Shown one piece after another: positions 2,110 to 16,676 of a stretch of 64,000 bases of DNA. The DNA is from a virus: positions 1 to 64,000 of IMG/VR virus record IMGVR_UViG_3300032214_001462. One strand, written 5' to 3'. Under the pieces are notes generated by a model, which worked only from the letters and a program-made list of their open reading frames with translations, did not search any database and was not told where the DNA came from. A program made the translations under genes and the position numbers. Every line of letters starts with the position of its first letter. Position 1 is the first letter of the stretch.

Positions 2110-2116
2110 TTGCCTA

Positions 2117-3485: not shown

Positions 3486-3504
3486 GAGTTGAGATGAGAT
3501 GGAT

Positions 3505-3532
3505 TGGTCAGTTTTACGTCGTGACCAGGACG
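3505..3532 (-). ncRNA. Pseudoknot motif A, copy 1
   Basis: CGUC-C-UGGUCA-C-GACG-UAAAAC-UGACCA. Confidence 0.75.
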
Positions 3533-3569
3533 CCCACACCCCCGTGGAACAGCAAGTCTACCAGCTCTG

Positions 3570-3926
3570 TCAAGCCTTGGCTGTCGGCTTGGTCAACTCA
3601 GAAATGTAGTTGGTAAGAGCTTCGACCTTAGCGTTCACGGATTGAATCTCAGCCATCAGCTCCTCCCTGGAAGGGGTCAAGCCAAAGATGTCATTGTCTT
3701 TGATGGCTTCAGGGTTGTTGCTCTTTTGGTACCGGCGGCAATCATCGTTGGTTGCATAGACAGTCTCTTGATACAAGTCAAGAACTGTTTTGAAATCAAC
3801 GCTACCCGCACCTTCGGCACTAAGTATGTTGCAAGTTTTCAAATAAAGCTGGGCAGCAAAACGAATGTTGTCTTCAAAGAACTCCTCGTACTGTTCAGAA
3901 GGAAGGCCGTAGGTGTCAATCGACAT
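3570..3926 (-). CDS. Hypothetical protein
   Basis: ORF track; ATG start at MSIDTY. Confidence 0.65.
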   Translation of the reverse strand: MSIDTYGLPSEQYEEFFEDNIRFAAQLYLKTCNILSAEGAGSVDFKTVLDLYQETVYATNDDCRRYQKSNNPEAIKDNDIFGLTPSREELMAEIQSVNAKVEALTNYISELTKPTAKA

Positions 3927-4101
3927 AACAATCCAAAGCTTTTCGGAGTGAATCAATAATAAAGGTTTCTTGAGCTTGTGGACCTAAGTCGGTCCACCAC
4001 TGGAGATCAGGATCTGTTTCATCCCAATCTATTTGGATTAATGGGCTACCATCTTCTTCTTCAATAAAATTAATTTTTAATTTGTAAAAAGAATCCTGCA
4101 T
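3916..4101 (-). CDS. Small acidic hypothetical protein
   Basis: ORF track. Confidence 0.55.
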   Translation of the reverse strand: MQDSFYKLKINFIEEEDGSPLIQIDWDETDPDLQWWTDLGPQAQETFIIDSLRKALDCYVD

Positions 4102-4110
4102 CTGAAGTAA

Positions 4111-5049
4111 TTACTTTTTAATAGCAGCTTTCAACTGAGGCAATGCTGTACCAGGGAATGGGACGTAGCCAGCCTCCATCATGTTGAAGAAGAGATCCCA
4201 TGCATCATGCTGTGTAAAGATCTCCCTTGGTTTGTAAGTACGCCAATGACTCAAAGGTGCTTGTGCACCTGAGTTTGTGTATAGCAATACAAAGCGCCCA
4301 TCGCTGATGTGATCAGACGGTGGTGCATACCACCAGGCAACACACTTTTCAGGTGTGCCACTGGGACTGGAGTTACGTGCTTCTGTCCGCTTACAAAGCA
4401 ATTCCCTGTACTTATTGAACCAAGTCAAGTGGATGCACCATGGCCGGAAGCCTTGGATCTCGGACGCAAAGTCAGATAGGTTGCTGAGCTGACGCTGATA
4501 CGACCCACACGAACACCAAGGGTCACCCATGACAGGTGCTTCTTCCTCAGTCCCCATGTCGCTGTCAAGATCAATGGGCCGATTCGGAAGACGCAAACCG
4601 TCTGGTGCAATGAGATGACCAAGATCTGTTTGATCCGACTGCAGAAGTGCTGTGACTTTTACTGGATCTGACAGATGTATGAATTTGTCAGCCCAATGAG
4701 CCTGAAGCTGGGCATTAGAAGTCAGGTGTCCGAGTGCGTGCGTGTAGTTCCAGCCCTTAAAAAGAATGTAAGCATTGTTATGCCATACACTAGGGCCACG
4801 ATAATTAGGGCCAAGGTAAGAAAAGAAATCTTTGAGACGGTTTGTGTAACTACTATAAGCAGCTTTGATTAACTGCCTGTTGTAAGTCTGCTCGCTACCA
4901 TCAGAACGCACCACAAGGCAATTGTCATCTCGCAGATAAATGCCAGTGATTGAGGTGTCATCAAAATCCTGGAACGCACGACGGATATTAGTCCGTGTGT
5001 AAATCGAGGCTTGAGCTTGGTTGAGTTCGAGTTGAGTTTGGAGTGACAT
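4111..5049 (-). CDS. SWIM-type zinc-finger protein
   Basis: CSC...CIH (CxC-xn-CxH) signature. Confidence 0.65.
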   Translation of the reverse strand: MSLQTQLELNQAQASIYTRTNIRRAFQDFDDTSITGIYLRDDNCLVVRSDGSEQTYNRQLIKAAYSSYTNRLKDFFSYLGPNYRGPSVWHNNAYILFKGWNYTHALGHLTSNAQLQAHWADKFIHLSDPVKVTALLQSDQTDLGHLIAPDGLRLPNRPIDLDSDMGTEEEAPVMGDPWCSCGSYQRQLSNLSDFASEIQGFRPWCIHLTWFNKYRELLCKRTEARNSSPSGTPEKCVAWWYAPPSDHISDGRFVLLYTNSGAQAPLSHWRTYKPREIFTQHDAWDLFFNMMEAGYVPFPGTALPQLKAAIKK

Positions 5050-5067
5050 GATTGGAGTTGAGTTGAG

Positions 5068-5259
5068 TTAGCGGTTGAGCCAGTAGTCCTGTTGGGCCTT
5101 TTCCTCCTTTGCTTTTTGGTAAGCACCCTTAGCCATCCTATACGATCCATAGATCACGGCAGCCCATGCGGCTGGAGAAGGAAGCAGTAACGCAGCAGCT
5201 GCTGTGACCAGTGCTGTTGCGCCACCTACTTTAAGCGCAGCTTTTTTCTCAGGTTTCAT
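5068..5259 (-). CDS. Small membrane protein
   Basis: Hydrophobic Ala-rich helix; start at MKPEKK. Confidence 0.55.
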   Translation of the reverse strand: MKPEKKAALKVGGATALVTAAAALLLPSPAAWAAVIYGSYRMAKGAYQKAKEEKAQQDYWLNR

Positions 5260-5339
5260 GTTAGAAATCCTTAACACAAATGGAAACTTTTAATCAAGTT
5301 TAGTAACAGTCTTAGAATAATTTGAAATACTTGGAACTC

Positions 5340-5546
5340 ATGTTGCAATTTGAAATGAGTCCAGAGGAAGCATTCTGGCAGGAGAAGATGATACGTTCAA
5401 TTAATGATTGCAATTCAATGAGTGAGTTAAAGGAAATGGCAATCCTCTTAGCGAAGATTGCCACGATGCGTCAAGTTGCAATCAAAGGATTAGTCAAAGA
5501 TGCTATGGATCTGATGGGTAAACAAGTCCATAGCATCTCAGATTAA
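5340..5546 (+). CDS. NblA-like phycobilisome degradation protein (divergent)
   Basis: Two-helix pattern MSPEEAF...INDCNSMSELKEMAILL...RQVAIKGL; own TAGAAT box at 5313. Confidence 0.45.
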   Translation: MLQFEMSPEEAFWQEKMIRSINDCNSMSELKEMAILLAKIATMRQVAIKGLVKDAMDLMGKQVHSISD

Positions 5547-5547
5547 A

Positions 5548-6648
5548 TCACAGACTGCTGTCTTCACCCGTGAGTTCATCACGTGCAGGCAATGCTTTCA
5601 CATCAACTGCATCTGTGGTACGGGATACGGGAAGAATCTGTACACCATCTTTGATTCCATAAGCACCACCAAGACGTTGTGCGTCTTGACGAGAATGTTG
5701 ATTGATGTAATCTTCAAACATCTCTTGGTACTTCCAAGTCGACTCACGATCTTCATCAGGAATCGAAAGACGATTCAGTGATTCGACCGCATCCTCTTGG
5801 CTGCTGTAAGCAGGAATCTCAAAGGATTCAATTGCACAGATCTCAACGTTGTTTGCACCGCGCATCTCATTAGCAAGCACTGGCACAAATACCGTGGTTG
5901 CATAGAACTTTTCGTTAAAGGCAAGCGGTACTTCGGAATCCAGTGCTTTGCTCAGGCACTTAGACATTTCCTTTTCATACAGCTTAACTTTATCTGAAAC
6001 ATCTGTACCATTAAGACCCTTAAGTGTAAGCACCATCGGGATCTTATGTGCACGCTTGTTATCTTCCGTGAGAATATAAACAAGGTACTTGGTACGTACG
6101 CTGTACTTACGCTTGTACATCTCACCTTTGCTGTTGGCAAGATCAGATGCAATCTTGTCGTTCTCAAACATTGCCTTCACCTCTGGATCTTCAAAGGTGC
6201 CAATCGTTTGACGCATACCAGTTGTTTCTTCCACCATCAGTGGAGAACGCAGCAGGATTTGCACACGAGGCTCAGTGAAATTCAAGCCTTCTTCAATGGA
6301 AGTATTAGGTGCCATACCAAAGGTTTGCTTGTAATCCCAGATGACAGAGCCTTTGGTGAACTGATCTTCAGTTGCATTCCAACCGCAAGTATCTAGATCA
6401 GATTTACGAACAAACCAACCACGTACCTTTGATTTATTTAAAGGCTGGATGGTAACAAGATTCTGGTAGCCAGAGACAAACTCTTTGGCTTGGAAAAGTT
6501 TGAAGGAATCAAGCCCACGAGTTGCAAGGGCAGACGTTTTTTTGGCAGTCATTTTGTTAGATGCTTTCAGAGGAGATGCGGAAGTTAGTTCAGATTCGAG
6601 TTCATCCATCCAGGAATCACTCATCATGTCAGTCGGAGTTGCTGTCAT
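5548..6648 (-). CDS. DUF5895-like protein (cyanobacterial family, SSB-associated)
   Basis: RSPL, RTKYLVYIL and HKIPMVLTLKG motifs. Confidence 0.55.
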   Translation of the reverse strand: MTATPTDMMSDSWMDELESELTSASPLKASNKMTAKKTSALATRGLDSFKLFQAKEFVSGYQNLVTIQPLNKSKVRGWFVRKSDLDTCGWNATEDQFTKGSVIWDYKQTFGMAPNTSIEEGLNFTEPRVQILLRSPLMVEETTGMRQTIGTFEDPEVKAMFENDKIASDLANSKGEMYKRKYSVRTKYLVYILTEDNKRAHKIPMVLTLKGLNGTDVSDKVKLYEKEMSKCLSKALDSEVPLAFNEKFYATTVFVPVLANEMRGANNVEICAIESFEIPAYSSQEDAVESLNRLSIPDEDRESTWKYQEMFEDYINQHSRQDAQRLGGAYGIKDGVQILPVSRTTDAVDVKALPARDELTGEDSSL

Positions 6649-6667
6649 GGTTTTTTCTTAGCAAAGA

Positions 6668-6695
6668 TGGACAGTTTAACGTCATATCCAGGACG
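6668..6695 (-). ncRNA. Pseudoknot motif A, copy 2
   Basis: CGUC-C-UGGAUA-U-GACG-UUAAAC-UGUCCA. Confidence 0.75.
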
Positions 6696-6715
6696 ATCTA
6701 TTTAATTGTTTTATT

Positions 6716-6937
6716 TCATTCAATTTCCAACTTTGTTTTTTGTAACGAATCAAAGTAAGAATCAGATGATTCTCGCATTGCTTCAAAGATAGTGCTTTCG
6801 ATATAGCCACAACCCTTGAGGAAATAAACAAGGCGTTGGACTACATCATCAGCAACTACAGCTTTGAACTCATGCAGTACTTTGTTGTTTTCATCTTCAT
6901 AAAGAAGAGTGAATTGATCGTGAGTTGGGAGTGACAT
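6716..6937 (-). CDS. Hypothetical protein
   Basis: Common phage pattern HEFKAVV...VQRLVYFLKGCGY. Confidence 0.65.
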   Translation of the reverse strand: MSLPTHDQFTLLYEDENNKVLHEFKAVVADDVVQRLVYFLKGCGYIESTIFEAMRESSDSYFDSLQKTKLEIE

Positions 6938-7755
6938 CAGAATGGAGGTTCATCAGAGTCAAAGTTGGGAGCACTACCGTATTGACCAGGGAGGTCAGGC
7001 AGGCCACCACCTGAGGTTTGTGTCCAAGGATCCGTTGATTCCTCAACGCTCTTGCCACCCCAAAGGCTAGCAACGCTATCTGTTGATGCCACTGTTGTTT
7101 GCGGTGCCACAGATTTCGTTTGAGACTCAGTGTTCTTTGGTGCCAATGTCATCTGCACCAACTGAATCTTTGTAATACTGCGCCGCTGCTGGGACTCCTT
7201 ATCAGTCCATGCATCAGTAACAAGACGCCCACGAATGGTGATGCCTGTTCCTTTGCGTGTGAAATTAAGAAGAAGTTCAGCTTGATTTAATTTATCTTGT
7301 GCACTATTGATCGCATAGAAGTTAAACAGATCTGCTTGATTGCGACCTGTGTTAACACAGATAGTTTGGTTTGTAATCATCAAACCATCTGCTGTTGTTT
7401 TGAATGCGCGTGAATCAGTTTGGTCAATATCTTTAATGCAACGACCCGTCAAGATCACGTCGTTGAGGACAGGGAATGCTTCAGTAACTTGAGCAATAAC
7501 TCCTCCATGGAGCGAGTACGCTTTTGATTCGAGATCAAACCGTAGCTTGGCGCCGTGAATGTAGACACGGTTTCCTTTGTCAAACTCTTTGAATTTGTCG
7601 CAGGCTTTCCCGTAAACATGGAAGGTCAGAACAGTCGGAGCTTTGTTGCCAACAGGCGGAAGCATAACTTCCGCACAGAGATTAGATGATGTTGCACTGG
7701 TGTATACCTCACGAGGCTTCTCGTTAAGGATGGCGCAAACGTCAACGTAATTCAT
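6937..7755 (-). CDS. ssb: Single-stranded DNA-binding protein with tandem OB folds
   Basis: VILTGR, KGTGITIRGRLVTDAWTDKE and acidic C-terminal DEPPF. Confidence 0.8.
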   Translation of the reverse strand: MNYVDVCAILNEKPREVYTSATSSNLCAEVMLPPVGNKAPTVLTFHVYGKACDKFKEFDKGNRVYIHGAKLRFDLESKAYSLHGGVIAQVTEAFPVLNDVILTGRCIKDIDQTDSRAFKTTADGLMITNQTICVNTGRNQADLFNFYAINSAQDKLNQAELLLNFTRKGTGITIRGRLVTDAWTDKESQQRRSITKIQLVQMTLAPKNTESQTKSVAPQTTVASTDSVASLWGGKSVEESTDPWTQTSGGGLPDLPGQYGSAPNFDSDEPPF

Positions 7756-7775
7756 GAGATCAAATGTGAAGTGTT

Positions 7776-7803
7776 AAAGCAGTTTAACGTCATGCTTAGG
7801 ACG
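7776..7803 (-). ncRNA. Pseudoknot motif A, copy 3
   Basis: CGUC-C-UAAGCA-U-GACG-UUAAAC-UGCUUU. Confidence 0.75.
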
Positions 7804-7808
7804 TTTCA

Positions 7809-9671
7809 TTAGTGGGTTTGTGACCAGTTGGATCCTACACGAGAATCGCCTTCAATCTCGCATTGAAACCCAAAGAATTTCTGGGCTTGCGGAAAGGCAA
7901 GCATAGCTTGATCACGAATCGCCTCAGTGTATTGAGGCTTACAAACTAGTTGAACTTCGTCATGAACCATCAACACTTGTTCCCAGTTTTGGCCATGGGG
8001 CAGCTTGAGTGCTGATTCAATATTGTTATGAATGTTAATAACAACTTGCTTCATAAGGATTGCACCTGCTGATTGCAACAATACATTCAATCCTTTGAAA
8101 GAAGATCTGCAATGCAAGATACGTTTATCTAAGCCAATTAAATAACCTCTATGCGAAATATTATTTTCAATTTGTTCTTTTAATTTCTTCAATGCAGGCA
8201 CTCCCTTCATGAATGAATTAATTGCAGTTCTTCCTAGCTGTCTAAGAACTTCTTCATCCTTTTCATTTGGATCAACAATTGTGCCGGCTTTTAAATGGCC
8301 AGCACCGTAGAGGACTGCATAAAGTAAACGCTTGCTAATATCCCTGGTCTCAACACCAAAACGTTCTTGGTTATACACGTGGATATCAATCTCTGGATCT
8401 GTAACAACACTTGCGTATTCACCTCGATCCCAGAAAGCCAAGTAACCAGCAAGGCAACGCAACTCTAGTGCTTTGGCATCAATGCCAATCATCTCCCATC
8501 CTTGTGGTGCATGAAACAACGAGCGGCATTCTTTGCCATAAGGTGAATAGCCTGCTGGAACCTGGCCCATATTTGGGTACTTGTGAGCACAACGACCAGT
8601 GATGCAGCCAGAAGTAACAACGTCACCGTGCATTCGACCAGTATCATTGTTAACCAACTTGAGCCAAGAGTTGTTTCCATCTGCGATTTGGCCAAGACGT
8701 TTTTTGATTAGCATGTATTCTGCCAGAGGTTTTGCCTCAGGGAAAGGCAGTTGCTCTAGTACTTCATCATTAAGAATTGGATTTCCTTTCTCAGTTGTTT
8801 TTTCTGGTTGCCATCCGTACTTAACCTTAAGTCGATCAACAATTTGGTCACGAGATCCAGGATTGAATTCTTCGTATCGTACTTTTTCAAATGGTACTCC
8901 TTTGATGTAGCCACGATTTTTATTGTTGACTCTTGGTACAAACCAGGTGCGATGTTCAATTGGTGGAAATATTTCTTTTAGATGTGCTTCAAGTCCTGTT
9001 TGTTTTGTTCGTAGATCATCCACGAGATCAAGACATGCATCCACATCAAAAGGAATACCTGCCCTAATTTGTTTGTTAATCGCAAGAGCAAAGTCGTGTT
9101 CAAGTTTAAGAGCTGATTCGGAATAGTTTTGATTGACGATATGTTCCCAAAGCTTTTTTGTAACTGCAACGTCTTGCTTGCAGTAGTCAAGCATCTCTTG
9201 AGAATATTCTGAGAAGTCCTTGAAGTCGATCTTATGGTCGGCCAATCTCCATCCCCACGCCTTAAGCGATGCGGATCCACGCAGGTTCGGTGGAACCTCC
9301 GGATATTGTTCGATGTCAAGGTCATAGAGTTTTTCCTTAGGCCAAATCAATCGTGTGCAGATGAGTGTGTCAATGATGCGTGTTTTGCAGTCAAATGAAT
9401 GCAGCTTTTGCAGAACAGGACAGTCATAGAAACAAATGTTATGGCCAATCAAAACATCAGCGGTTGCCAGATGAGCAATAGCGTTAGCAATGCTGTCAGG
9501 CCCATAGCTAAAAGTTTGATTGGCTGTGATGTCATGGATGACTAGGCAATGGATTTTAGTGACCTTGTCATAGAGACCATCTGATTCAAGGTCAAATACT
9601 AGGTACCGATCATTTACGGAACCTGGCTTCAGTTTGAATTGAGAGTTCTTTACAGGCAAGGTCTTCGTCAT
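7809..9671 (-). CDS. polA: DNA polymerase family A, T7-like (3'-5' exonuclease plus polymerase; Tyr at the 762-equivalent site)
   Basis: ExoI FDLESDG, ExoII GHN, ExoIII YCKQDV, motif A DAKALELR, motif B KRLLYAVLYG, motif C VHDE. Confidence 0.95.
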   Translation of the reverse strand: MTKTLPVKNSQFKLKPGSVNDRYLVFDLESDGLYDKVTKIHCLVIHDITANQTFSYGPDSIANAIAHLATADVLIGHNICFYDCPVLQKLHSFDCKTRIIDTLICTRLIWPKEKLYDLDIEQYPEVPPNLRGSASLKAWGWRLADHKIDFKDFSEYSQEMLDYCKQDVAVTKKLWEHIVNQNYSESALKLEHDFALAINKQIRAGIPFDVDACLDLVDDLRTKQTGLEAHLKEIFPPIEHRTWFVPRVNNKNRGYIKGVPFEKVRYEEFNPGSRDQIVDRLKVKYGWQPEKTTEKGNPILNDEVLEQLPFPEAKPLAEYMLIKKRLGQIADGNNSWLKLVNNDTGRMHGDVVTSGCITGRCAHKYPNMGQVPAGYSPYGKECRSLFHAPQGWEMIGIDAKALELRCLAGYLAFWDRGEYASVVTDPEIDIHVYNQERFGVETRDISKRLLYAVLYGAGHLKAGTIVDPNEKDEEVLRQLGRTAINSFMKGVPALKKLKEQIENNISHRGYLIGLDKRILHCRSSFKGLNVLLQSAGAILMKQVVINIHNNIESALKLPHGQNWEQVLMVHDEVQLVCKPQYTEAIRDQAMLAFPQAQKFFGFQCEIEGDSRVGSNWSQTH

Positions 9672-9843: not shown

Positions 9844-9905
9844 TGATCAAATAAAAGACGGATGCATATTATCCGATTTGATTTGATCGTCAAGCAGCTA
9901 CAGAT

Positions 9906-10667
9906 TTATTTTCTGTTCTTGATGTTGTATCCAACAAATTTTCCTTCCTTCTTCCGTTGAGTAATGGCTTTCATGGCATCCGACCCAGCACGCTGGGAGC
10001 CATGGACCAAGAGTGCGAAGGGCTTATCACCTAAGCAATGGCTGTCGTCGTGATCTATTTGGAGACCACGCTCTGCCGCTTCCTCTTCTGTGTAAACAAC
10101 ATATGCCACACGCTGGAACACATCAGGATACTTGGGGATCAAGTAGTCGAGTGTGCCGCCTTGTGATGCAGTGAGATAGAAGTTAGGTGGCATGATGTCC
10201 TTAAGGTTTAGCCACATGCCAAGGGACTTGGTGTAGCTGTAGAACTTTTGATCAGGCCTACCTTGAGCGACCATGATCCAAGCACGCATGTAGTTTTCAG
10301 TCCAATAGTCACCAGACTCATGGATGCGCACAAGTTTTTTAGGTGCTTGCATCAAGAGTGATAGATCGATTAGATCACGGAGAAGCATAGCTTGGCTGCC
10401 ATTCATATGAATGGTTTCACGTAGTAGATCCCAGTTATGCCAACGAGCTTCTCTTACTGTTGGCCTGGTCTCGGCCATTGCAGCAAAGCAACGGTATTCA
10501 TCTGCGACTGTGCCAGTGAACTGAGGCAAGTCACGGATTTGACCAGTGACACGATCAGCCATGGTCTTACATACACCAGCGTGCGGACATGAATAACCAG
10601 CTGGGATATTAAAGATCAAACGATTTTTGAGTTTGCCGTTACCAGTGGAAAACTTGAGGAGTTTCAT
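9906..10667 (-). CDS. GP88-like protein (Cys-rich)
   Basis: GNGKLK...FNIPAGYSCPHAGVC...CFA, VRIHESGDY, FYSYTK. Confidence 0.7.
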   Translation of the reverse strand: MKLLKFSTGNGKLKNRLIFNIPAGYSCPHAGVCKTMADRVTGQIRDLPQFTGTVADEYRCFAAMAETRPTVREARWHNWDLLRETIHMNGSQAMLLRDLIDLSLLMQAPKKLVRIHESGDYWTENYMRAWIMVAQGRPDQKFYSYTKSLGMWLNLKDIMPPNFYLTASQGGTLDYLIPKYPDVFQRVAYVVYTEEEAAERGLQIDHDDSHCLGDKPFALLVHGSQRAGSDAMKAITQRKKEGKFVGYNIKNRK

Positions 10668-10702
10668 GGTGTTGAGTTGAGTTGAATGATAAAAAAAACT
10701 GA

Positions 10703-10730
10703 TGAGTAGTTTAGGGACATGCTCAGGTCC
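10703..10730 (-). ncRNA. Pseudoknot motif A, copy 4
   Basis: GGAC-C-UGAGCA-U-GUCC-CUAAAC-UACUCA; stem 1 shows compensatory changes. Confidence 0.7.
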
Positions 10731-10762
10731 ATCTTCCCGTTCGGGAATGCTAGTGGGTCTGA

Positions 10763-11233
10763 CTACTGGGCTTCAAGCTCATCAGCAATAGCGAGCAAGC
10801 GGTTCTTAACACCAAGCAGCGCCCAGTGCTCTTCTGGCGTCTGAGCTTTAATTGGTACTGGCACCACCTGATCCGCAGCGGCGCGAAGGGCGGCGGCGGC
10901 TATCTGTCGAGCTTCGTTGAGGCAATCTTCTGGGCCATAGGCGCTGCTGTTGTTGGCGGCATCCAGCACCGCCTGCGCGGCGGGGGAGAGGGGTGCGGTC
11001 ATTGGTGGCCCCCAGCGGGTCAAGGCTTCCGCAATCGCGTTCTCAAAACCAACTTCAGATCCTTCGCCCATGTGGCGATAGAACAACTCGGTCACATCAC
11101 TGTCCCTCGGCCTCTCCCCCGTCTCGGCCAGCAGTGCGCGGGCACGTTCCAGTAAGTCATGGTGCTTCATATCCACTGCGTAGGTGTTAAAGGCAGCGTG
11201 AAGCTCAGCGCACAGTGCTCGGAAGTCAGTCAT
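10763..11233 (-). CDS. Modular hypothetical protein (GC-rich block)
   Basis: MTDFRALCAEL...LSPAAQAVLDA...LLAIADELE. Confidence 0.7.
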   Translation of the reverse strand: MTDFRALCAELHAAFNTYAVDMKHHDLLERARALLAETGERPRDSDVTELFYRHMGEGSEVGFENAIAEALTRWGPPMTAPLSPAAQAVLDAANNSSAYGPEDCLNEARQIAAAALRAAADQVVPVPIKAQTPEEHWALLGVKNRLLAIADELEAQ

Positions 11234-11753
11234 CGAGTTGCTCCAGTGCGCGGCGGATGGTGTCGGAGTTGCAAGTTCCCATGTTCTCCAATGCGTCTAA
11301 TTCACTGAGTGCACGCTCCTTCAAGCTCGGCGGCTTGGGGCGGCGGACTTCCTCCTCCCAGTTGATAACCTCATCGTCTCGGCCAATAGCGCGGGCTACC
11401 TGATCCACCAGCGAACTATCAACTTGGTTTGAAGTAGAAGTTAGCGTCATACCAACCCTGAAGTTGGGCGTCAGCAATGCCTGTAACTCCGCCTGTTGCT
11501 TTGCAGTAAGTTTCAAAGGCTTGCTGATCTGGTAGATCTTTGATGTTTGGCGTTCAGCAGCTTCCAGAGATTCAACCCGACTACACAAAGCCAAAATGTT
11601 TGCATGGGTTTCGACGATGTGCTTGTGAGCTGCATCTTCTAGCACCTTTACCCTGGCGCGGAGTTCAAGGATGCAGGCTTGAGCGTGGCCGTCCCGACGA
11701 GCCCAATGCTCCGTGTCGGCCCATTGCTCGGGCGTTGCTGTGTGGTCAGTCAT
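11226..11753 (-). CDS. Modular hypothetical protein (GC-rich block)
   Basis: RRPKPPSLKE...RRALEQLDD; ATGACTGA junction. Confidence 0.7.
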   Translation of the reverse strand: MTDHTATPEQWADTEHWARRDGHAQACILELRARVKVLEDAAHKHIVETHANILALCSRVESLEAAERQTSKIYQISKPLKLTAKQQAELQALLTPNFRVGMTLTSTSNQVDSSLVDQVARAIGRDDEVINWEEEVRRPKPPSLKERALSELDALENMGTCNSDTIRRALEQLDD

Positions 11754-11872
11754 CGAGGGCCTCCAGTGCGCGGCGGAGAAGGGTCAGATCGCATTGCAGA
11801 TCCCAACGCTTTTCCAAACCAGTTACTACTTCTAGCGCCTGCTCCTTCAAGCTCGGCGGCTTGGGGCGGCGG
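11315..11872. repeat. 32-bp exact direct repeat (11315-11346 and 11841-11872)
   Basis: gctccttcaagctcggcggcttggggcggcgg occurs twice. Confidence 0.9.
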
Positions 11873-12072
11873 GCGGCGGTAAGAAACTCTCTGGCGTTGG
11901 AGTCACTCAACTCCAAGAGTTTGCAGCAAGCCTCCAGCTCCTGATCAGATCCCCAGCGGGCGGCTTGGGTGGCGATGTAGTCGTAGTAAGGGCCGAGCTG
12001 ATTATCCGCTTCTCTGTACCACTGCTGCACCAGCTCAGGCGGCGGAGTAATCGGGTGGTTGTTGTCAGTCAT
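11746..12072 (-). CDS. Modular hypothetical protein (GC-rich block)
   Basis: ITPPPELVQQW...RRPKPPSLKE...RRALEALDD. Confidence 0.7.
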   Translation of the reverse strand: MTDNNHPITPPPELVQQWYREADNQLGPYYDYIATQAARWGSDQELEACCKLLELSDSNAREFLTAARRPKPPSLKEQALEVVTGLEKRWDLQCDLTLLRRALEALDD

Positions 12073-12175
12073 GAGGAAGAGAAGTGTGTAGAACTAATTG
12101 GTGGTTGTGTTACAGGATGAACGACATCATATACATGAAGCGTCATATACTTTCCGTATAAACCGCTACAGAATA

Positions 12176-12328
12176 ATGACGCTTACATACCGTGGTGTCA
12201 AGTACGAGCAAGAGGATCGTGCTAAGGCAGACAAGGCCTGGTGGAACTTAGCCCATCGTCCATGGCTACGTCTGACGTACCGTAACATCCGCTACAATCC
12301 TTATCTTACTGGAGGTCAAATCAAATGA
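12176..12328 (+). CDS. DUF4278-like small protein
   Basis: MTLTYRGVKY plus a second LTYRNIRY repeat. Confidence 0.65.
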   Translation: MTLTYRGVKYEQEDRAKADKAWWNLAHRPWLRLTYRNIRYNPYLTGGQIK

Positions 12329-12441
12329 ACAAAGCATTGATTGTTTACCTGGTAAACCAGAAAAAGAAAGTGGCACGCAAGGATATGGAATCCAAGCATG
12401 CCATCAAAGAGCTAGAAAAACAAACAACCGCGACCTTCTGA
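12325..12441 (+). CDS. Small basic protein (38 aa)
   Basis: GGAGG at 12311; ATGA overlap; MNKALIVYLVNQKKK... Confidence 0.55.
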   Translation: MNKALIVYLVNQKKKVARKDMESKHAIKELEKQTTATF

Positions 12442-12472
12442 TCGCCATTGTTGAACCTGATCCCCTGGCTTA

Positions 12473-13120
12473 TCAGCTGGGGGATTCTGTTTGGAAGGCA
12501 GCTTCTCCAATGATGGGGAACTGTTCGCAAAAGATTCGTTTGATTTCTCTGGCAATTTGTTGGTGTTCAAGTTGTGTTGATTCATGACAACGTAAGTCTA
12601 GGTAGTGAACCCACGACCTAATTGTACCGTTCATGAAGAGACGAGTTTGTGTCGATAGCGGCAGAATGGAGCGAGCACATTCTTTTGCTACACCATTACT
12701 AACCATCTCACGATAGAGATGCTCAGAGTTTTCATAGAGTTCACTGATTCTCCTGTAGTAATTGCTTACTAAATCAGGAGATAGATCATCAATACTGTTC
12801 TGCCTATTCTTGTGATCCTGCCTACGCAGATGTGGAATTACAGCAGAGCCAAGTTCATTGGTATCTGCATAGCGTTGACTAAACTCTTGGAATGAGAATG
12901 AACGATGGCGAATAATCTGCGCAGATATTGCGCGTGTTGTTTCAATTTCAACACAAAGATTAGCCATCTCGTAAGGGCTCCAGTGTTTGTGCTTAATGAG
13001 ATAACGCAACAACCGTGGAGCAGTGTCCATGTTGTCTTGGTTTTTTGGAGCTGATACACGAGCCATGCGTGTGATCATCTCTTCTGCATTGGGCGTTGCC
13101 CAAACCAACTGGACACTCAT
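12473..13120 (-). CDS. thyX: FAD-dependent thymidylate synthase
   Basis: HWSPYE and RHRSFSFQEFSQRY ThyX motif. Confidence 0.95.
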   Translation of the reverse strand: MSVQLVWATPNAEEMITRMARVSAPKNQDNMDTAPRLLRYLIKHKHWSPYEMANLCVEIETTRAISAQIIRHRSFSFQEFSQRYADTNELGSAVIPHLRRQDHKNRQNSIDDLSPDLVSNYYRRISELYENSEHLYREMVSNGVAKECARSILPLSTQTRLFMNGTIRSWVHYLDLRCHESTQLEHQQIAREIKRIFCEQFPIIGEAAFQTESPS

Positions 13121-13121
13121 C

Positions 13122-13421
13122 TCATTCACCAGGGACAATAAATTCTTTCATCAGACGCTCAAGCTCTGATGCAGGACAGATACGCATCGTAGCGTGTTCT
13201 GTTGGTGAAGACAGATGATCCCACTGGATCACTAAGAACTTTTGCTTACGGCCAAGGCTGTTTGGTTTTTCAACAATGTCTAGTACATTGCCGTATCGCT
13301 GGGTGCGGTATTGCTGAATACGTTCTTTGACTTCATTACGGATAGCAAAGATCCCATGAGTCTTGGGACGTTCAGCAACACGATCACCAACGGTGTAAGT
13401 GAATTGACGTTTAGTTGGCAT
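13122..13421 (-). CDS. Hypothetical protein (possibly SH3-like)
   Basis: YTVGDRVAE...FLVIQWD. Confidence 0.6.
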   Translation of the reverse strand: MPTKRQFTYTVGDRVAERPKTHGIFAIRNEVKERIQQYRTQRYGNVLDIVEKPNSLGRKQKFLVIQWDHLSSPTEHATMRICPASELERLMKEFIVPGE

Positions 13422-13770
13422 AGTGATTGCAGTCGAATGAATCAGCTGTGTGGTACTCAGGGAAATCAAATGAGCAGTTGTCATTGATGTTATGAGAACA
13501 AGTCAAGCACTTGATCTCAGGTAGTCTGTCTTCTATTTGATCAACAACACTAGTGCCCATTAGCTTAGATAGTTGTTGATGCAAATGAAGTAGATGTTCG
13601 TACTGTGCATAGGCTTCGGATGAGATTTCATATGTTGTGAAGCGATGTTTACAGTCTTCACATTCTTTACGGCGCCGCTGTCCATGTTGTGCTTTCTTGG
13701 ATTCAAGCACACGAACAGCGGACTTACCGCATTGAGGACAATCAGGGAGCTTGAGTTTCTGGAACCCCAT
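13411..13770 (-). CDS. NrdR-like Zn-ribbon protein without ATP-cone
   Basis: CPQCG...RVLES...RRRKECEDCKHRFTTYE. Confidence 0.7.
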   Translation of the reverse strand: MGFQKLKLPDCPQCGKSAVRVLESKKAQHGQRRRKECEDCKHRFTTYEISSEAYAQYEHLLHLHQQLSKLMGTSVVDQIEDRLPEIKCLTCSHNINDNCSFDFPEYHTADSFDCNHYAN

Positions 13771-14065
13771 CTTCTTTAGATAAGTTCAATGAGTTGAGTA
13801 GTTCAAGACAATTAACTGAACCCATGATTTTAAATGAATCAATAATTAATTCTTCCTTGAAATCAGGAAGTTCATAGTATGCAAATAAGATGGCTTCTGC
13901 TTTATCGAAGTCATCATAAGAGCCTGTTAGTTTTTCAATAACAGAGCCAGGCATGTTGTCAACAAGACAGGTAATAATTGATTGTCTGACTTGTTCCCAA
14001 CAATGATCAGGAACTAGATAAATTGTTTTAGCAACAAGATCAAGGTCAACGTAGTCTTGTGTCAT
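13742..14065 (-). CDS. Hypothetical protein
   Basis: ORF track. Confidence 0.6.
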   Translation of the reverse strand: MTQDYVDLDLVAKTIYLVPDHCWEQVRQSIITCLVDNMPGSVIEKLTGSYDDFDKAEAILFAYYELPDFKEELIIDSFKIMGSVNCLELLNSLNLSKEDGVPETQAP

Positions 14066-14112
14066 ATAGAAAGACCCCCGCCAATGCAGGGGCCGAACAT
14101 TCCGGTAGTACC

Positions 14113-14475
14113 TTAGACAGCTGTAGCTTCTGTGTCAATGAGCTTGTCATAAAGACCAGCATCCTTGAGCCGCTCAAGCATGCCACACATCATGGTTGCG
14201 TGGGCTTGAGTGGTCTCCATGAAGTGACGTGCACGTTCAGCTGAGATCACATGAACGTTGCCGTTAGGTTCGACATACTTCCATGAGCCATCAGGCTGAG
14301 GATCACCCTGGAGCGCAAGCTTCTCAGAGTTACGGACGTAACGTAGCTCAAGGTTATGATGATCCTTAAGGCCATCACCATCCGTCCATGTAGCACCGAT
14401 GTTGTAGCGCTTCTCATCATCAGAGTATGCATGGAACTCAGGGATGAGAGATTTGAAAGCAGAAAGGAATTGCAT
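14113..14475 (-). CDS. Hypothetical protein
   Basis: ORF track; followed by a terminator-like hairpin at about 14068-14095. Confidence 0.65.
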   Translation of the reverse strand: MQFLSAFKSLIPEFHAYSDDEKRYNIGATWTDGDGLKDHHNLELRYVRNSEKLALQGDPQPDGSWKYVEPNGNVHVISAERARHFMETTQAHATMMCGMLERLKDAGLYDKLIDTEATAV

Positions 14476-14505
14476 TGTTTTGAATTGAGTGTGGGTTGGT
14501 AGCCG

Positions 14506-14535
14506 ACTGGGACTTACACCTTATGGATGCCCAGT
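14506..14535 (-). ncRNA. Bulged-stem motif B, copy 1
   Basis: ACUGGG-CAUCCAUAAGGUG-UAAGU-CCCAGU. Confidence 0.65.
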
Positions 14536-14586
14536 TATGTGTGTCACATATTTATTGCTTGGCTCATAGTTAAGTAAAGAAAAGAC

Positions 14587-14660
14587 TGCCTGCTGACGGA
14601 TTCGAACCGACACTGAACGAGGCTTAAACTCGTCGCCTCTACCAGTTGGGCTAAGCAGGC
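14587..14660 (-). tRNA. trnL: tRNA-Leu(UAA), short variable loop, CCA not encoded
   Basis: Acceptor stem GCCTGCT/AGCAGGC+A; anticodon arm ACGAG-TTTAAGC-CTCGT; T-loop TTCGAAT. Confidence 0.9.
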
Positions 14661-14860
14661 TCGCTTGGACTTACGTCAATTGCATCTGACTGCCAAGTGT
14701 GATCTTGAGGCAGGACTTCCATTCCGTAAGTCCAGCTATCGTAGTCTTCTTCGTTGCGGGGATCGTCTTCAATCAAGATGTACTGTGGTGAATTGTCATG
14801 AATGTAATCGCCGAGATTAGCTAGTGCCATGGCAAGCAACTGCTCATCGGTATGGTCCAT
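14651..14860 (-). CDS. Small acidic protein; 3' end overlaps motif B2 and the tRNA 5' end
   Basis: ORF track; D/E-rich. Confidence 0.55.
   Translation of the reverse strand: MDHTDEQLLAMALANLGDYIHDNSPQYILIEDDPRNEEDYDSWTYGMEVLPQDHTWQSDAIDVSPSEPA
14664..14697 (-). ncRNA. Bulged-stem motif B, copy 2 (3 nt upstream of the tRNA)
   Basis: CUUGG-CAGUCA...UGACG-UAAGU-CCAAG. Confidence 0.6.
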
Positions 14861-14909
14861 GGTTAAAGAGGCATCCCATTTACGAGGATAGGATGCCCCT
14901 GCTGTGGCT

Positions 14910-16619
14910 TCAGCAATTAGATGCTAGCTGCTTTTCACGGGAGTGCAAGGCCAGCTTGAATGCAGCGGAGTACTGCTCTTGCTGGCAGTCATCCAATCGC
15001 TGGTTGCCAACACCAGCAATTTGTTTGACGTTCATCACACCCATGGATACATCCAGTTGGATGGTGAAGGTTGGTTTGCTATCAATCATGCAGAGCACAA
15101 TGAAGTGCTTGCGTTTCTTGATGTTCTCAGCATACTGAGATGCAGAGCCAACACAGTTGCGAACAGCTTGGCCCCATTGGGCTAGCTGATGCGTATCAAT
15201 GGGTTGGAGGAATGTCCATTCTTGTTCACCCATGTTGACCTTGACAGGCATAGGGAACAAGTCCTGGTACAGAGACTCCTTCTTGTTTGTGATCTTCCAC
15301 GCCTCTGCTTGTACATAGTCATGGAAGTCAGGCATACGCCAGCGCTTGGGTGGTTCAAGCGTCTTACCTTCTTCTAGAATGCGCATGATCATTGAGAATG
15401 TATCATTTAATTCATAGAAACTTTTAAGATGATAATCATAATCAGACATTGAACCAATACGTGCGCCAATGTCAAGTTCGTTATATTTACGCAAGATATT
15501 AAAGAATGAAGCAACAGACATATGTTGGCGTAGCCATTCAATTAATTGAGAATCAGTACGTAAATAGTCAAGACGAATTGAACGTAGCTCATCGTAGTAA
15601 GTACGGTAATGATCGAGTGGGCATTCAGGCCAAATCTTATTTACAAAGTGAATTGAATTAGTGATTTGCTCGAATGCTTTATAGCCATACTTAATTGTTT
15701 TACGTGCTGTATTATCTGGATTGTTATATTCTGCAGTGCAGCGATCAAGTTCTATTTGTAATTGTTTCTTGATATATGGAGTAGTAATGATATGACTGAT
15801 TGCTGTAAGTGTTACATAAGTTGAAGACAAAGTACCATGCTCTTTGCGGAATGATTCCGCAGTATCAAGCATGTTATCTACTGTCAACTTAAAGTTAGCT
15901 TTGTCAGAGATATGGCGAGTCAGTGACGCTGGTATGTCTAGCGCATCAAGTACGTTGTTGCACTTGATGCGATCAAAGATACCACGTGAATCAGACCATG
16001 ATGGTATGGTTGACATCAGCTCTTGCTCAAATTGAGTAATTGCTGCTGCCATATCACGTGACTTTTGGTAGTAATTACCAACGCTTGATTTACGCCAATG
16101 ACGAGAATCATTGCCATTAACAATGTCTTGCTTGGTAATTAATTGAGAGTAAGTAAAGATCTGTACGCCCCGACCAGTGGTGTGCTCAGTGCATTGATCT
16201 TTACTATTCCAGATTTGATGCGGCACCATCTTTGCTGCTGCCGATGTGTTCTTGAATCCATAGGCATAGCCATAGATATAGTCTTCACCTCGTTGAGGGA
16301 GCCATGCTGCGTACCAGCATTGTTCGTAGTGATAGAGAATAGCGATAGGTACAGTGCGTGCTTGCGGAGTTGCCACATCCACAAGCTTGGTAAACAATTG
16401 AAAACGGCCTGGTGCTAGCTCGCTATTGATGCGGTCTATCGCATCTTGCTGCAAGCCACTGCGTACGACATCTTCTGGGATCAGATGTGGGATATTACCC
16501 AGTGGGTACTTAGCTTTCTTAGGAGCCTTAGCAGGTTCCTGTTCTCTGACCAAAGCCTTGAGCTTTGGGTCATAGGCAAGCAGTTCTTGTTGGAGATTGG
16601 AGGGTAGAGCAAAATGCAT
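14910..16619 (-). CDS. PcfJ-like domain protein
   Basis: C-terminal FHD...LAQWGQAVRNCVGS...FTIQL...QIAGVGN. Confidence 0.75.
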   Translation of the reverse strand: MHFALPSNLQQELLAYDPKLKALVREQEPAKAPKKAKYPLGNIPHLIPEDVVRSGLQQDAIDRINSELAPGRFQLFTKLVDVATPQARTVPIAILYHYEQCWYAAWLPQRGEDYIYGYAYGFKNTSAAAKMVPHQIWNSKDQCTEHTTGRGVQIFTYSQLITKQDIVNGNDSRHWRKSSVGNYYQKSRDMAAAITQFEQELMSTIPSWSDSRGIFDRIKCNNVLDALDIPASLTRHISDKANFKLTVDNMLDTAESFRKEHGTLSSTYVTLTAISHIITTPYIKKQLQIELDRCTAEYNNPDNTARKTIKYGYKAFEQITNSIHFVNKIWPECPLDHYRTYYDELRSIRLDYLRTDSQLIEWLRQHMSVASFFNILRKYNELDIGARIGSMSDYDYHLKSFYELNDTFSMIMRILEEGKTLEPPKRWRMPDFHDYVQAEAWKITNKKESLYQDLFPMPVKVNMGEQEWTFLQPIDTHQLAQWGQAVRNCVGSASQYAENIKKRKHFIVLCMIDSKPTFTIQLDVSMGVMNVKQIAGVGNQRLDDCQQEQYSAAFKLALHSREKQLASNC

Positions 16620-16648
16620 GAGTTGAGTTCGTAGTTGGTTCGTAGTAT

Positions 16649-16676
16649 TGAGCAGTTTAGCGTCATGCTCAGGACG
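16649..16676 (-). ncRNA. Pseudoknot motif A, copy 5
   Basis: CGUC-C-UGAGCA-U-GACG-CUAAAC-UGCUCA. Confidence 0.75.

Follow-up and report, generated by a model that had tools for sequence, protein, structure and literature searches.

The window, i.e., the whole stretch of 64,000 nucleotides of viral DNA that was analysed, holds, among the early genes of a lake cyanophage, a compact H-type RNA pseudoknot in five canonical copies and one variant that is conserved. The fold covaries, and the pattern occurs far beyond chance expectation. The element is not confined to this cyanophage: it is also present in unrelated IMG/VR phages and prophages of many bacterial phyla as well as in cultured phages (Staphylococcus, Mycobacterium, Nostoc, crAss-like and Vibrio), where it often stands ahead of head-scaffolding genes, and Rfam has no family that matches it. 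Judged from its sequence, it is best read as the phage and prophage counterpart of coremin, an exoribonuclease-resistant RNA of eukaryotic RNA viruses.

The element in the window and its covariation

The genes at all six sites run on the minus strand, which is the sense strand of the element (Table 1). On this strand the consensus is CGUC-C-N6-Y-GACG-YWAAAC-N6', where N6 pairs with N6', and each of the canonical copies is 28 nt long with the layout S1a(4)-C-S2a(6)-N-S1b(4)-YWAAAC-S2b(6). A preliminary description of this DNA had placed the five copies and the variant at these six sites and had recognised the H-type anatomy, and it was right in both respects. Its loop–tail pairings are as it listed them, with one C.A mismatch in UGAGCA/UACUCA and an S2 of 5 bp in the copy ahead of the SSB gene, and Pfam agrees with the downstream genes it had named (Sipho_Gp157, DUF5895, SSB, GP88 and PcfJ). 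In the covariance-model search that it had suggested, the five copies scored 36–47 bits and the next best match in the window 11.8 bits. The hexaloop variant, which the model missed, is conserved nearly base for base in three relatives, and its flanks diverge. Other intergenic structures are also present in the early region of this phage.

Table 1. Pseudoknot copies, the variant and an example leader in the window (anatomy given on the sense strand; scores from the covariance model).
Feature	Position	Strand	Anatomy	Score (bits)	Context
Copy 1	3505..3532	-	CGUC-C-UGGUCA-C-GACG-UAAAAC-UGACCA	40.8	37 nt past stop of ORF 3570-3956; 19 nt on, AUG at 3485 opens a 37-aa ORF, then Gp157-like gene
Copy 2	6668..6695	-	CGUC-C-UGGAUA-U-GACG-UUAAAC-UGUCCA; one U.G pair	46	20 nt past stop of ORF 6716-6937; DUF5895 gene (5548-6648) 19 nt on
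Copy 3	7776..7803	-	CGUC-C-UAAGCA-U-GACG-UUAAAC-UGCUUU; S2 of 5 bp	46.4	5 nt past stop of DNA polymerase gene (7809-9671); SSB gene (6937-7755) 20 nt on
Copy 4	10703..10730	-	GGAC-C-UGAGCA-U-GUCC-CUAAAC-UACUCA; S1 swapped to GGAC/GUCC; one C.A mismatch	36.1	32 nt past stop of ORF 10763-11233; GP88-like gene (9906-10667) 35 nt on
Copy 5	16649..16676	-	CGUC-C-UGAGCA-U-GACG-CUAAAC-UGCUCA	47.1	10 nt past stop of ORF 16687-16929; PcfJ-like gene (14910-16619) 29 nt on
Hexaloop variant	21497..21521	-	CGUC-GAGCUG-GACG-UUAAAC-G-CAGC; 6-nt loop; 4-bp S2, GCUG/CAGC	9.7	Upstream of 21294-21473, first small gene of the leftward early block
Leader after copy 1	3486..3504	-	G-depleted, unstructured, no Shine-Dalgarno		Joins knot to AUG; other copies have equivalents

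On the sense strand of polycistronic phage messages the element forms a compact H-type pseudoknot with an S1 of 4 bp and an S2 of 5–6 bp, in which L1, a single invariant C, crosses the deep groove of S2 and the adenines of L3 (YWAAAC) line the minor groove of S1. The leaders between knot and AUG contain 4.6% G against a background of 21.9%, and their mean folding energy is -0.26 kcal/mol.

Throughout the whole 80.7-kb genome the pattern was matched five times on one strand, and neither the opposite strand nor the reversed control gave a single match. Over 75 related contigs retrieved via the SSB gene (related loci of 1.21 Mb in total), a pattern that ignores pairing gave 211 sense and 0 antisense matches, and in this sample sense-strand G.U pairs outnumbered A.C mismatches by 73 to 24. 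Genomes carry 4–7 copies, on a single strand only and inside about 20 kb. For both stems together 94% of the cells are paired, a level reached in none of 500 shuffles, whereas slid partner columns gave 16–48%; cells changed on both sides numbered 166 against 49.6 ± 13.9 in the shuffles, again with none of the 500 reaching the observed value. The loop-closing pair of S1 is always C-G in the phage copies, L1 is C and AAACU is invariant, while the first two bases of the spacer vary (UU, UA, CU, AA), all of them variants that coremin also shows or tolerates. The second and fourth pairs of S1 covary; the third, which the search pattern used had fixed as G-C, swaps to C-G only in the Vibrio copy.

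Likeness to coremin and its Watson-Crick variant

All 17 constrained positions agree with the coremin of the plant virus BNYVV, both as printed (PMC10520033, PMC6546385) and as retrieved from 42 distinct IMG/VR sequences, and the positions that vary among phages are those that tolerate change in coremin mutagenesis. Coremin, described in 2019 (PMC6546385) and 2023 (PMC10520033), likewise has a 4-bp hp1, CGUC/GACG, whose loop-closing pair must be C-G and whose inner pairs can covary, a loop that begins with C and ends with A-N, and a UUAAACU-R spacer in which AAACU is essential or invariant and the first two bases are free, the natural variants UA and CU being common to both elements. Tandem copies and untranslated or intergenic positions are also shared. 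The phage loop, however, has 8 nt (CUGAGCAU type) and that of coremin 4–6 nt, and its second base is U in place of the G of the coremin consensus YGAD/YGNNAD. Bases 2–7 of the phage loop pair with the sequence directly past the spacer into a Watson-Crick stem of 5–6 bp. The short non-canonical loop–spacer contact of coremin and its obligatory hp2 hairpin, which is strictly required for Xrn1 resistance, are replaced in the phage form by a longer second stem; an hp2 hairpin after the phage knot was not found (23% against 21% in controls). The carriers differ too, being DNA phages and prophages in one case and RNA viruses in the other, and the canonical tetraloop form of coremin was met only in contigs of 10.3 kb or less.

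A further comparison is offered by xrRNA-WCC, a Watson-Crick variant of coremin which was selected in vitro and occurs naturally in Sanxia picorna-like virus 5 (PMC10321173). Its loop pairs antiparallel with the end of the spacer, and the register is shared, the pair of loop 7 and spacer 19 corresponding to A10-U22 of the phage element; its L1 is likewise one unchangeable nucleotide. In contrast to the phage element, its S2 is limited to 3 bp and includes the C of AAAC, and its L1 is G rather than C. This knot resists ribosomes without hp2, but its resistance to Xrn1 still needs it (PMC10321173).

Placement and possible function

The distance from the upstream stop codon to the knot peaks at 5–9 nt, in unrelated phages as well, with almost no copies closer than 5 nt. 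The distance from knot to AUG is 19–22 nt in the S-EIVl lineage, to which the window belongs, but other phages do not conserve it (median 53 nt). In the S-EIVl lineage the knot is placed just outside the footprints of both the ribosome terminating upstream and the one initiating downstream, so it can stay folded, and this packing explains the fixed spacing to the AUG. The genes behind the element are ones needed in many copies: of the about 30 downstream genes tested, 11 are head-scaffolding genes, which belong to two different Pfam families, and a major head protein and, in the window, SSB are among the others.

Our best explanation, which we hold tentatively and by analogy with coremin, is that the knot may act as a one-way mechanical roadblock in the 5'-to-3' direction that would stabilise the downstream cistron. 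The long transcript would be cut upstream, and a 5'-to-3' degrading activity, either RNase J in hosts that possess it or RNase E on its scan from a 5'-monophosphate end, would then halt at the knot, leaving the cistron behind it to outlive the remaining transcript. The genes so protected would be those of SSB, GP88, DUF5895 and PcfJ in the window and the scaffolding and capsid genes in other phages. An unrelated xrRNA also halts bacterial RNase J1 (PMC5760640), and most hosts seen have RNase J (cf. PMC3997798). Several points nevertheless count against the roadblock. The phage element has neither the hp2 that coremin needs nor the consensus G at the second loop base, and frameshift pseudoknots of similar size (BWYV, PLRV kind) do not stop Xrn1. 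Vibrio phages carry a bona fide copy in hosts without RNase J (cf. PMC3997798). A hammerhead ribozyme or a tRNA lies 2–7 nt past the knot in some genomes, and a cut at that place would put the knot on the upstream fragment, apart from the RNA that it should be shielding. In long intergenic gaps, finally, the knot is closer to the upstream stop in 43 cases and to the downstream start in 22.

A less probable reading is that the knot acts on ribosomes and not on nucleases. It would block or uncouple them, stopping post-termination 70S or 30S sliding from the upstream cistron, or read-through ribosomes, so that the next gene could be translated, or a tRNA or ribozyme behind the knot could fold, independently of upstream traffic. 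Such a mechanism would work in any host including Vibrio, and it agrees with the knots directly ahead of tRNA and hammerhead ribozymes in some genomes; the 5–9 nt past the stops in unrelated phages is also the spacing of frameshift and read-through stimulators. Coremin, besides Xrn1, blocks scanning ribosomes and stimulates -1 frameshifting, as its Watson-Crick variant does without hp2. But a pure block leaves the preference for highly expressed downstream genes unexplained, scanning is not needed for bacterial initiation, and the stop of the polymerase gene has no slippery site and is followed by a second in-frame stop, which excludes recoding at that site. It is rather unlikely that the knot is instead RNA punctuation, marking a processing site or, after a cut shortly beyond it, guarding the upstream fragment's 3' end against 3'-to-5' exonucleases. 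Outside the S-EIVl lineage the position of the knot is indeed bound more closely to the upstream stop than to the start downstream, signals for cleavage or termination come soon after it in several genomes (hammerhead at 6–7 nt, tRNA at 2 nt, terminators in L188 and L201), and other intergenic structures are at hand in the early region of the window phage. However, a downstream terminator accompanies only about 6% of copies, a CCA-like tail is not conserved, S2, the helix that would be reached first from the 3' side, is short and frequently rich in A/U, and the tertiary signature conserved here is what coremin requires for its block from the 5' side.

The preliminary description had offered an SSB-sensing regulon, a riboswitch and an exonuclease-resistant RNA, and only the last gains support, from the position-by-position match to an Xrn1-resistant motif. 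A protein-binding translational operator, on which phage SSB or host S1 would set downstream translation, or which would serve as a stand-by or enhancer site for initiation without Shine-Dalgarno in cyanobacteria, appears improbable. It draws on the T4 gene 32 precedent (PMC10690425), the copy ahead of the SSB gene and the constant knot–AUG distance of the S-EIVl lineage with its G-free leader lacking a Shine-Dalgarno. This distance is accounted for by footprint packing and is lost in other phages, where the element stands ahead of genes for scaffolding, capsid, polymerase, terminase and tRNA and no SSB is close by; since the same signature recurs in phages that share no proteins and in hosts of many phyla, a sequence-specific partner would have to be universal. 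A riboswitch, that is, a minimal pseudoknot aptamer of the preQ1-I type sensing a small molecule and gating the downstream gene, is very unlikely. The H-type knot, A-rich L3 and invariant junction bases would suit it, tandem copies occur, and some copies abut a Shine-Dalgarno (L181, L130, L197, L214) or precede a terminator, L188 having three knot-plus-terminator units. Yet the expression platforms are inconsistent, a Shine-Dalgarno adjoining only 4–11% of copies, the neighbours are structural and replication genes and not metabolic ones, L2 is 1 nt without an obvious pocket, Rfam gives no hits and the coremin fold fully accounts for the invariant bases. Hardly credible, lastly, is a signal at the DNA level, either hairpins in single-stranded DNA or TAAACU as the -10 box of a promoter cassette. 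TAAACT does retain T-12, A-11 and T-7 of the -10 consensus, with a weakly conserved A about 7 nt downstream, and some copies sit 2–10 nt past a terminator. But no -35 or extended -10 element was found at the knot copies, a double-stranded promoter does not predict covariation of two interleaved stems, the G.U pairs are biased 3 to 1 towards the sense strand, the same motif acts as RNA in RNA viruses, and it is carried in hosts with very different sigma factors.

Other known systems

Pistol ribozymes differ from the phage element, which has no P2, P3 or cleavage site; one pistol sequence has a linker of the UUAAAU type after P1. In the Pistol 5' domain the P1 hairpin loop also forms a 6-bp pseudoknot, and the phage neighbourhoods are similar (PMC4604425); the GP20-a/b motifs are other structured RNAs ahead of the same phage scaffolding genes. 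Neither Rfam Pistol nor GP20 matched any copy tested. The luteovirus -1 frameshift pseudoknots (BWYV, PLRV) resemble our element in their size of about 28 nt, in a short L1 whose key C occupies the S2 deep groove and in an A-rich loop in the minor groove of S1. They lie within a reading frame, 5–8 nt past a slippery heptamer, whereas the phage element lies past stop codons and has no slippery site.

The leader pseudoknot of T4 gene 32, which serves autogenous control of this SSB, is likewise of the H type, has an L1 of 1 nt, lies ahead of a phage SSB gene and is followed by an unstructured leader. It is, however, a single copy confined to gene 32, and our element precedes many unrelated genes, none of which is SSB in other phages. 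The SSB control of the gene 32 kind proposed in the preliminary description is not supported here; the SSB of the window is a PF00436 protein, and gp32 comes from an unrelated family. The bacterial 5' mRNA stabilisers (the 5' stem-loops of ompA and papA; the aprE, ermC and SP82 leaders; cited in PMC3997798) are simple hairpins or ribosome-binding sites at a primary 5' end, with no conserved intra-operon tertiary fold, but their job is the one that we propose for the phage knot: a 5'-proximal structure hinders decay that depends on the 5' end and raises the yield of the downstream gene.

Anatomy and covariation of the pseudoknot

All genes between position 1 and about 22.2 kb of the window lie on the minus strand, which is therefore the RNA sense strand of the pseudoknots. 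The six sites claimed in the preliminary description were all found (see the table), and all five canonical copies have one layout, namely the 5' half of stem S1 (S1a, 4 nt), a single C, S2a (6 nt), one nucleotide, S1b (4 nt), the linker YWAAAC and S2b (6 nt). The pairing of S1a to S1b and of S2a to S2b makes this an H-type pseudoknot. The loop–tail pairings listed earlier also form, with one C.A mismatch in UGAGCA/UACUCA and only five pairs in the SSB-gene copy, and Pfam returned the same downstream genes as had been assigned at first (Sipho_Gp157, DUF5895, SSB, GP88 and PcfJ); the upstream neighbour of the SSB-gene copy is a family A DNA polymerase gene (Pfam). In the source record, an 80.7-kb virus with terminal repeats, the pattern matches five times on one strand, and neither on the other strand nor with the reversed control. 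A covariance-model search, suggested earlier as a check, scored the five canonical copies at 36–47 bits, with the next match in the window at 11.8 bits. Only exact matches are informative here, since the bare string GTTTWRSGWC with one mismatch allowed gave 47 matches against 43 expected, i.e., the chance level. The early block of the window also contains a tRNA gene directly downstream of the PcfJ-like gene (Rfam, 53 bits), and a group I intron is located in the late region (Rfam, 95.5 bits).

Coordinates of the pseudoknots and neighbouring features in the window and in other loci
Feature	Source	Positions	Strand	Remarks
Canonical copy 1	window	3505-3532	-	
Canonical copy 2	window	6668-6695	-	
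Canonical copy 3	window	7776-7803	-	
Canonical copy 4	window	10703-10730	-	
Canonical copy 5	window	16649-16676	-	
Hexaloop variant	window	21497-21521	-	6-nt loop; L1 not C; S2 GCUG/CAGC
Leader	window	3486-3504	-	
Leader	window	16620-16648	-	
Leader	window	10668-10702	-	
tRNA gene	window	14587-14660	-	
Group I intron	window	38203-38441	+	
Knot	L292, Staphylococcus phage SA13	2501-2588		S1 CGAC/GUCG; between SPP1-type head-morphogenesis gene and GP20 scaffolding gene
Knot and hammerhead	L228, Firmicutes bacterium CAG:95 contig	3071-3158	-	
Knot and hammerhead	L228, same contig	2089-2176	-	
Knot and tRNA	L293, Nostoc phage NMeng1	2001-2106		canonical knot; annotated (pseudo) tRNA gene
Knot	L294, Vibrio phage D456	596-630		S1 UCUC/GAGA; small ORFs around annotated on opposite strand; host class without RNase J
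Back-to-back knots	L199, Chloroflexi MAG	1375-1430		
Back-to-back knots	L225, Chloroflexi MAG	2567-2626		
Back-to-back knots	L127, IMG/VR contig	362-420		
Back-to-back knots	L296, crAss-like phage cr7_1	about 1455-1530		

The window phage is akin to Synechococcus phage S-EIVl, in which the element occupies orthologous gaps with compensatory changes in both stems (e.g., UGUC/GACA and AGUC/GACU). Seventy-five related IMG/VR loci were collected via the SSB protein, a sampling blind to the motif, and were searched with a pattern that fixed unpaired or invariant letters only, including C3, G12, the third S1 pair (G-C) and U22. This search yielded 211 sense and 0 antisense matches in 1.21 Mb, with 116 distinct 28-mers. 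Among the distinct copies, the S1 pair (0,15) is CG in 89, GC in 14, UA in eight and AU in two, and the pair (2,13) is UA in 105 and AU in 11, while the loop-closing C3-G12, both bases of which were preset by the search pattern, is found in 116 of 116. Elsewhere S1 takes the forms CGAC/GUCG, UGCC/GGCA and UCUC/GAGA, and the third pair, also preset as G-C, is swapped to C-G in the Vibrio copy only. The inner pairs of S2 are formed in 83–99% of cases with GC, AU and UA freely exchanged, the range for pairs (10,22) to (6,26) being 83–100%. In an alignment of 119 copies, 94% of the cells are paired compared to 81% in shuffles and 16–48% with the partners slid, and both-side changes occupy 166 cells compared to 49.6 ± 13.9 in shuffles, none of the 500 shuffles reaching this value. 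Wobble pairs favour the sense strand 73 to 24.

Outside the helices, the loop has C as its first and A as its penultimate base in every copy, the second base is U in 106 of 115, and the last base is U (76), C (23) or A (16). A pairing-only search without sequence constraint recovered the linkers UUAAAC, UAAAAC, CUAAAC and GUAAAC alone, AAAC being invariant; next comes U, which the pattern search had preset, and then G in 91 or A in 22 copies. Each of five relatives with complete or long sequences has 4–7 copies, which are confined to a single strand and to about 20 kb. The covariation of both stems, the sense-only matches and the wobble bias demonstrate that the knot is a real structure under selection, which acts at the RNA level or at least on the sense strand.

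The covariance model fails to recognise the hexaloop variant at the sixth site of the window (9.7 bits only). The string GUC-RAGCUG-GACGUUAAAC nevertheless reappears in three relatives, each time at the head of their early block and between diverged flanks, and one S2 pair changes from G-C to G.U in two of the three. The variant is a conserved second subtype and not a decayed copy.

Distribution and genomic placement

A scan of IMG/VR with the bare DNA pattern matched at least 114 stretches. Among the matches listed, all four inner S2 pairs form in 128 of 152, where chance would give 2%, and 52 of the 94 loci with a paired copy have no protein in common with the window. A stricter pattern, with about 4 matches expected by chance in 596 Gb, found 50 stretches in bacterial genomes, nearly all of them properly paired, in Firmicutes, Saccharibacteria, Chloroflexi, Alphaproteobacteria, Bacteroidetes and a phytoplasma; none of the 50 belongs to a beta- or gamma-proteobacterial genome. 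By a short BLAST search against cultured phages, copies were found in 85 Staphylococcus phages, in Lactobacillus, Bacillus, Mycobacterium, Arthrobacter, Nostoc, Microcystis, marine Synechococcus, Paracoccus and Vibrio phages and in crAss-like phages, and those of SA13, NMeng1, Labelle, cr7_1 (two in tandem) and Vibrio phage D456 were checked by eye. An Enterococcus prophage locus compared by BLAST with cultured phages gave no useful match.

Some copies are clustered. Knots stand back to back, 0–12 nt apart, in two Chloroflexi MAGs, an IMG/VR contig and cr7_1, and the locus L188 contains three tandem units of knot and terminator that repeat about every 75 nt. A Selenomonadaceae stretch (L201) has seven knot copies in 4 kb. 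In six Alphaproteobacteria MAGs (L208, L216, L217, L233, L237 and L240) the knot has near-identical flanks on both sides and lies on contigs of up to 1 Mb, i.e., in a conserved locus that is either chromosomal or prophage.

Among the relatives of S-EIVl, the distance from the end of the knot to the start codon is 19–22 nt in 131 of 173 distinct cases, and the leader so delimited is poor in G (4.6% compared to the background of 21.9%), lacks a Shine-Dalgarno sequence and is essentially unstructured. In the window, the starts behind the knots lack Shine-Dalgarno sequences, and several of them are preceded by a recurring, G-free CUCAACUC-type stretch. Outside this lineage the 19–22 nt spacing is lost, the median distance from knot to start being 53 nt. 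In both sets, however, the knot starts 5–9 nt past the upstream stop codon far more commonly than at any other distance, and almost never at less than 5 nt. The edges of terminating and initiating ribosomes lie about 5–9 nt past the stop codon and about 20 nt before the AUG, respectively. Since both spacings correspond to these edges, the knot may be packed as tightly as possible between the ribosome footprints while still being folded. The genes flanking the knot are mostly co-oriented with it on both sides; the impression from a crude ORF count that its orientation is tied more to the upstream gene was dropped after a stricter count (44 to 16 upstream, 47 to 12 downstream). A hairpin just upstream of the knot, which seemed common in the window, is not enriched (folding energy −4.5 kcal/mol for the upstream 35 nt and −5.0 kcal/mol in controls).

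In unrelated phages, head-scaffolding genes of two different Pfam families are the most frequent class of downstream genes (11 of about 30 tested), the others including genes of the major head protein, DNA polymerase, terminase, MazG and methyltransferase. In SA13, 10 nt separate the knot from the preceding head-morphogenesis gene and 61 nt from the GP20 scaffolding gene that follows, with the capsid gene beyond, a position matched in 85 S. aureus phage records. In the CAG:95 contig each of four knots is followed after 6–7 nt by a hammerhead-like core; Rfam calls two of these four type III hammerheads (about 50 bits each), and the cores of the other two were read by eye. After hammerhead self-cleavage, the upstream fragment would here carry the knot at its 3' end. 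The NMeng1 knot ends 2 nt before the tRNA gene and would therefore be part of the tRNA precursor's 5' leader. Terminators are present at a minority of copies only, and so are ribozymes and Shine-Dalgarno sequences that abut the knot.

Possible roles of the element

The preliminary description had offered an SSB-sensing regulon and a riboswitch among its readings of the element, and neither is supported by our data. An operator of the T4 gene 32 type is the unique leader knot of its own SSB gene and is bound by that SSB, whereas the phage element is present in 5–7 copies per genome before different genes, and the copies at scaffolding genes have no SSB gene nearby. As to a riboswitch, the copies had no Rfam match at the gathering threshold, and relaxing the limit to an E value of 10 added none (the Rfam calls at other loci concerned adjacent hammerheads and tRNAs only), L2 is 1 nt long, and the downstream genes serve replication and head formation. 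The preQ1-I class would require an Rfam match, a multi-nucleotide L2 with a ligand-pairing C and a queuosine gene context, which the element lacks, and a terminator or an abutting Shine-Dalgarno sequence that could act as a riboswitch platform occurs in a few per cent of copies only. A sigma-70-type promoter would need −35 and −10 hexamers but no base pairing; the lack of a conserved −35 box and of a TG extension and the covariation of two interleaved stems speak against it. The operator, riboswitch and promoter readings are thus all weak. In the Pistol ribozyme the P1/pseudoknot domain is followed by the helices P2 and P3 with a G-U cleavage junction (PMC4604425), while in the phage element S2b comes directly after the linker and there is no Rfam Pistol match. 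A stimulator of −1 frameshifting or read-through requires a slippery heptamer or a leaky stop 5–9 nt upstream and an extended frame downstream. The spacing from the stop codon suits this, but a slippery site is lacking at the polymerase stop, where another in-frame stop comes immediately afterwards.

By analogy with coremin (xrRNA-C), the Xrn1-resistant RNA of plant viruses (PMC6546385, PMC10520033), the knot would most likely act as a one-way 5'-to-3' roadblock; the likeness to coremin and the placement before high-demand genes both speak for this role. In this role it would keep RNase J, or RNase E scanning that depends on the 5' end, away from the downstream cistron. The idea of such scanning comes from the existing literature on RNase E. 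A different class of xrRNA is able to arrest bacterial RNase J1 too (PMC5760640), which argues for a general mechanical block. Most beta- and gamma-proteobacteria possess RNase E/G only (PMC3997798), and the lack of these groups among the bacterial stretches would fit a dependence on RNase J, yet the copy in Vibrio phages is real, so the correlation is only suggestive, and this copy argues against a role restricted to RNase J. The roadblock is also opposed by the hammerhead and tRNA neighbours, which would leave the knot on the upstream fragment, and by the position of the knot, which follows the upstream stop codon and not the downstream start. Together with the Vibrio copy, these observations keep two rivals alive, namely that the knot is a ribosome insulator or that it serves as a 3'-end or punctuation element.

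In its widest form, the roadblock proposal would credit the tailed DNA phages of many bacterial phyla with a true exoribonuclease-resistant RNA on the fold that coremin has in plant and fungal RNA viruses. RNase J, scanning RNase E and ribosomes would all be stopped by this universal roadblock, which would set the relative output of cistrons in long operons; we consider this rather unlikely. Such RNAs have been described only from RNA viruses infecting animals, insects, plants or fungi, bacteria and phages being absent from those accounts, and neither an xrRNA in phages nor a stabiliser upstream of scaffolding genes was found in the literature searched. If the proposal is true, prokaryotic viruses would gain their first natural xrRNA class, and a 28-nt relative in cyanophages, in staphylococcal, mycobacterial and crAss-like phages and in many prophages would extend the xrRNA principle to DNA phages and bacteria. 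It would also offer a simple explanation for raised yields of SSB, scaffolding and capsid proteins within one phage transcript, and a very small portable RNA-stabilising part for bacteria.

Comparison with coremin and its Watson-Crick variant

The coremin sequence, C1GUC4-C5GAA8-G9ACG12-U13UAAACUAC21 followed by the hairpin hp2, agrees with the phage consensus at 17 of the 17 constrained phage positions, and the coremin mutagenesis is mirrored by the natural variation of the phage copies. The coremin hp1 has 3–5 bp, a pyrimidine–purine loop-closing pair (C-G or U-A) and inner pairs that may covary; in the phage S1 the closing pair, as preset, is always C-G, and the second and fourth pairs covary. 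Only C or U is tolerated as the first loop base of coremin, and the phage base is always C. The consensus of the coremin loop lp1 is YGAD, or YGNNAD for 6-nt loops, and natural 8-nt loops ending in C are functional; the phage loop starts with C and has A in the penultimate place, and its second base is mostly U instead of G. In the conserved coremin spacer UUAAACUAC, A15–A20 are essential, including A15–A17, C18 and U19, and the phage element has the invariant AAAC together with U22, the preset counterpart of U19. The replaceable U13 and U14 correspond to phage bases that vary as UU, UA, CU and AA, all of them natural coremin variants.

The main difference concerns hp2, which is strictly required for Xrn1 resistance of coremin. 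A hairpin of this kind within 4 nt after S2b occurs in 23% of the phage copies and in 21% of control positions, i.e., without enrichment, and the leaders in the lineage of the window phage are G-free and unstructured. Coremin arrests Xrn1 in vitro 1 nt ahead of hp1; it is also an obstacle to scanning ribosomes and a frameshift stimulator. The canonical tetraloop coremin 18-mer was found in 46 IMG/VR contigs (L242-L287), presumably of RNA viruses, all of them no longer than 10.3 kb and always with AC and a hairpin next; none was found in phage-sized IMG/VR contigs, the form present in such contigs and in bacterial genomes being that with the 8-nt loop.

No solved three-dimensional structure of coremin was found in the literature searched. 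The coremin authors suspected a loop–spacer pseudoknot and selected a Watson-Crick version of it, xrRNA-WCC, in which loop positions 6–8 pair with spacer positions 20–18 (PMC10321173). The natural covariation in phages is direct comparative evidence for such a pseudoknot, at which coremin mutagenesis merely hinted, and hundreds of covarying phage copies would settle the coremin architecture if the phage element is indeed of the same class. Having no hp2 and U instead of G as the second loop base, the phage element is placed outside strict coremin membership, as a new form whose mode of action is probably that of coremin. With respect to xrRNA-WCC, the phage S2 is likewise Watson-Crick, with swapped pairs and a single C as L1, and it lies in the same register (A10-U22 corresponding to A7-U19), lengthened to 5–6 pairs by means of the 8-nt loop.
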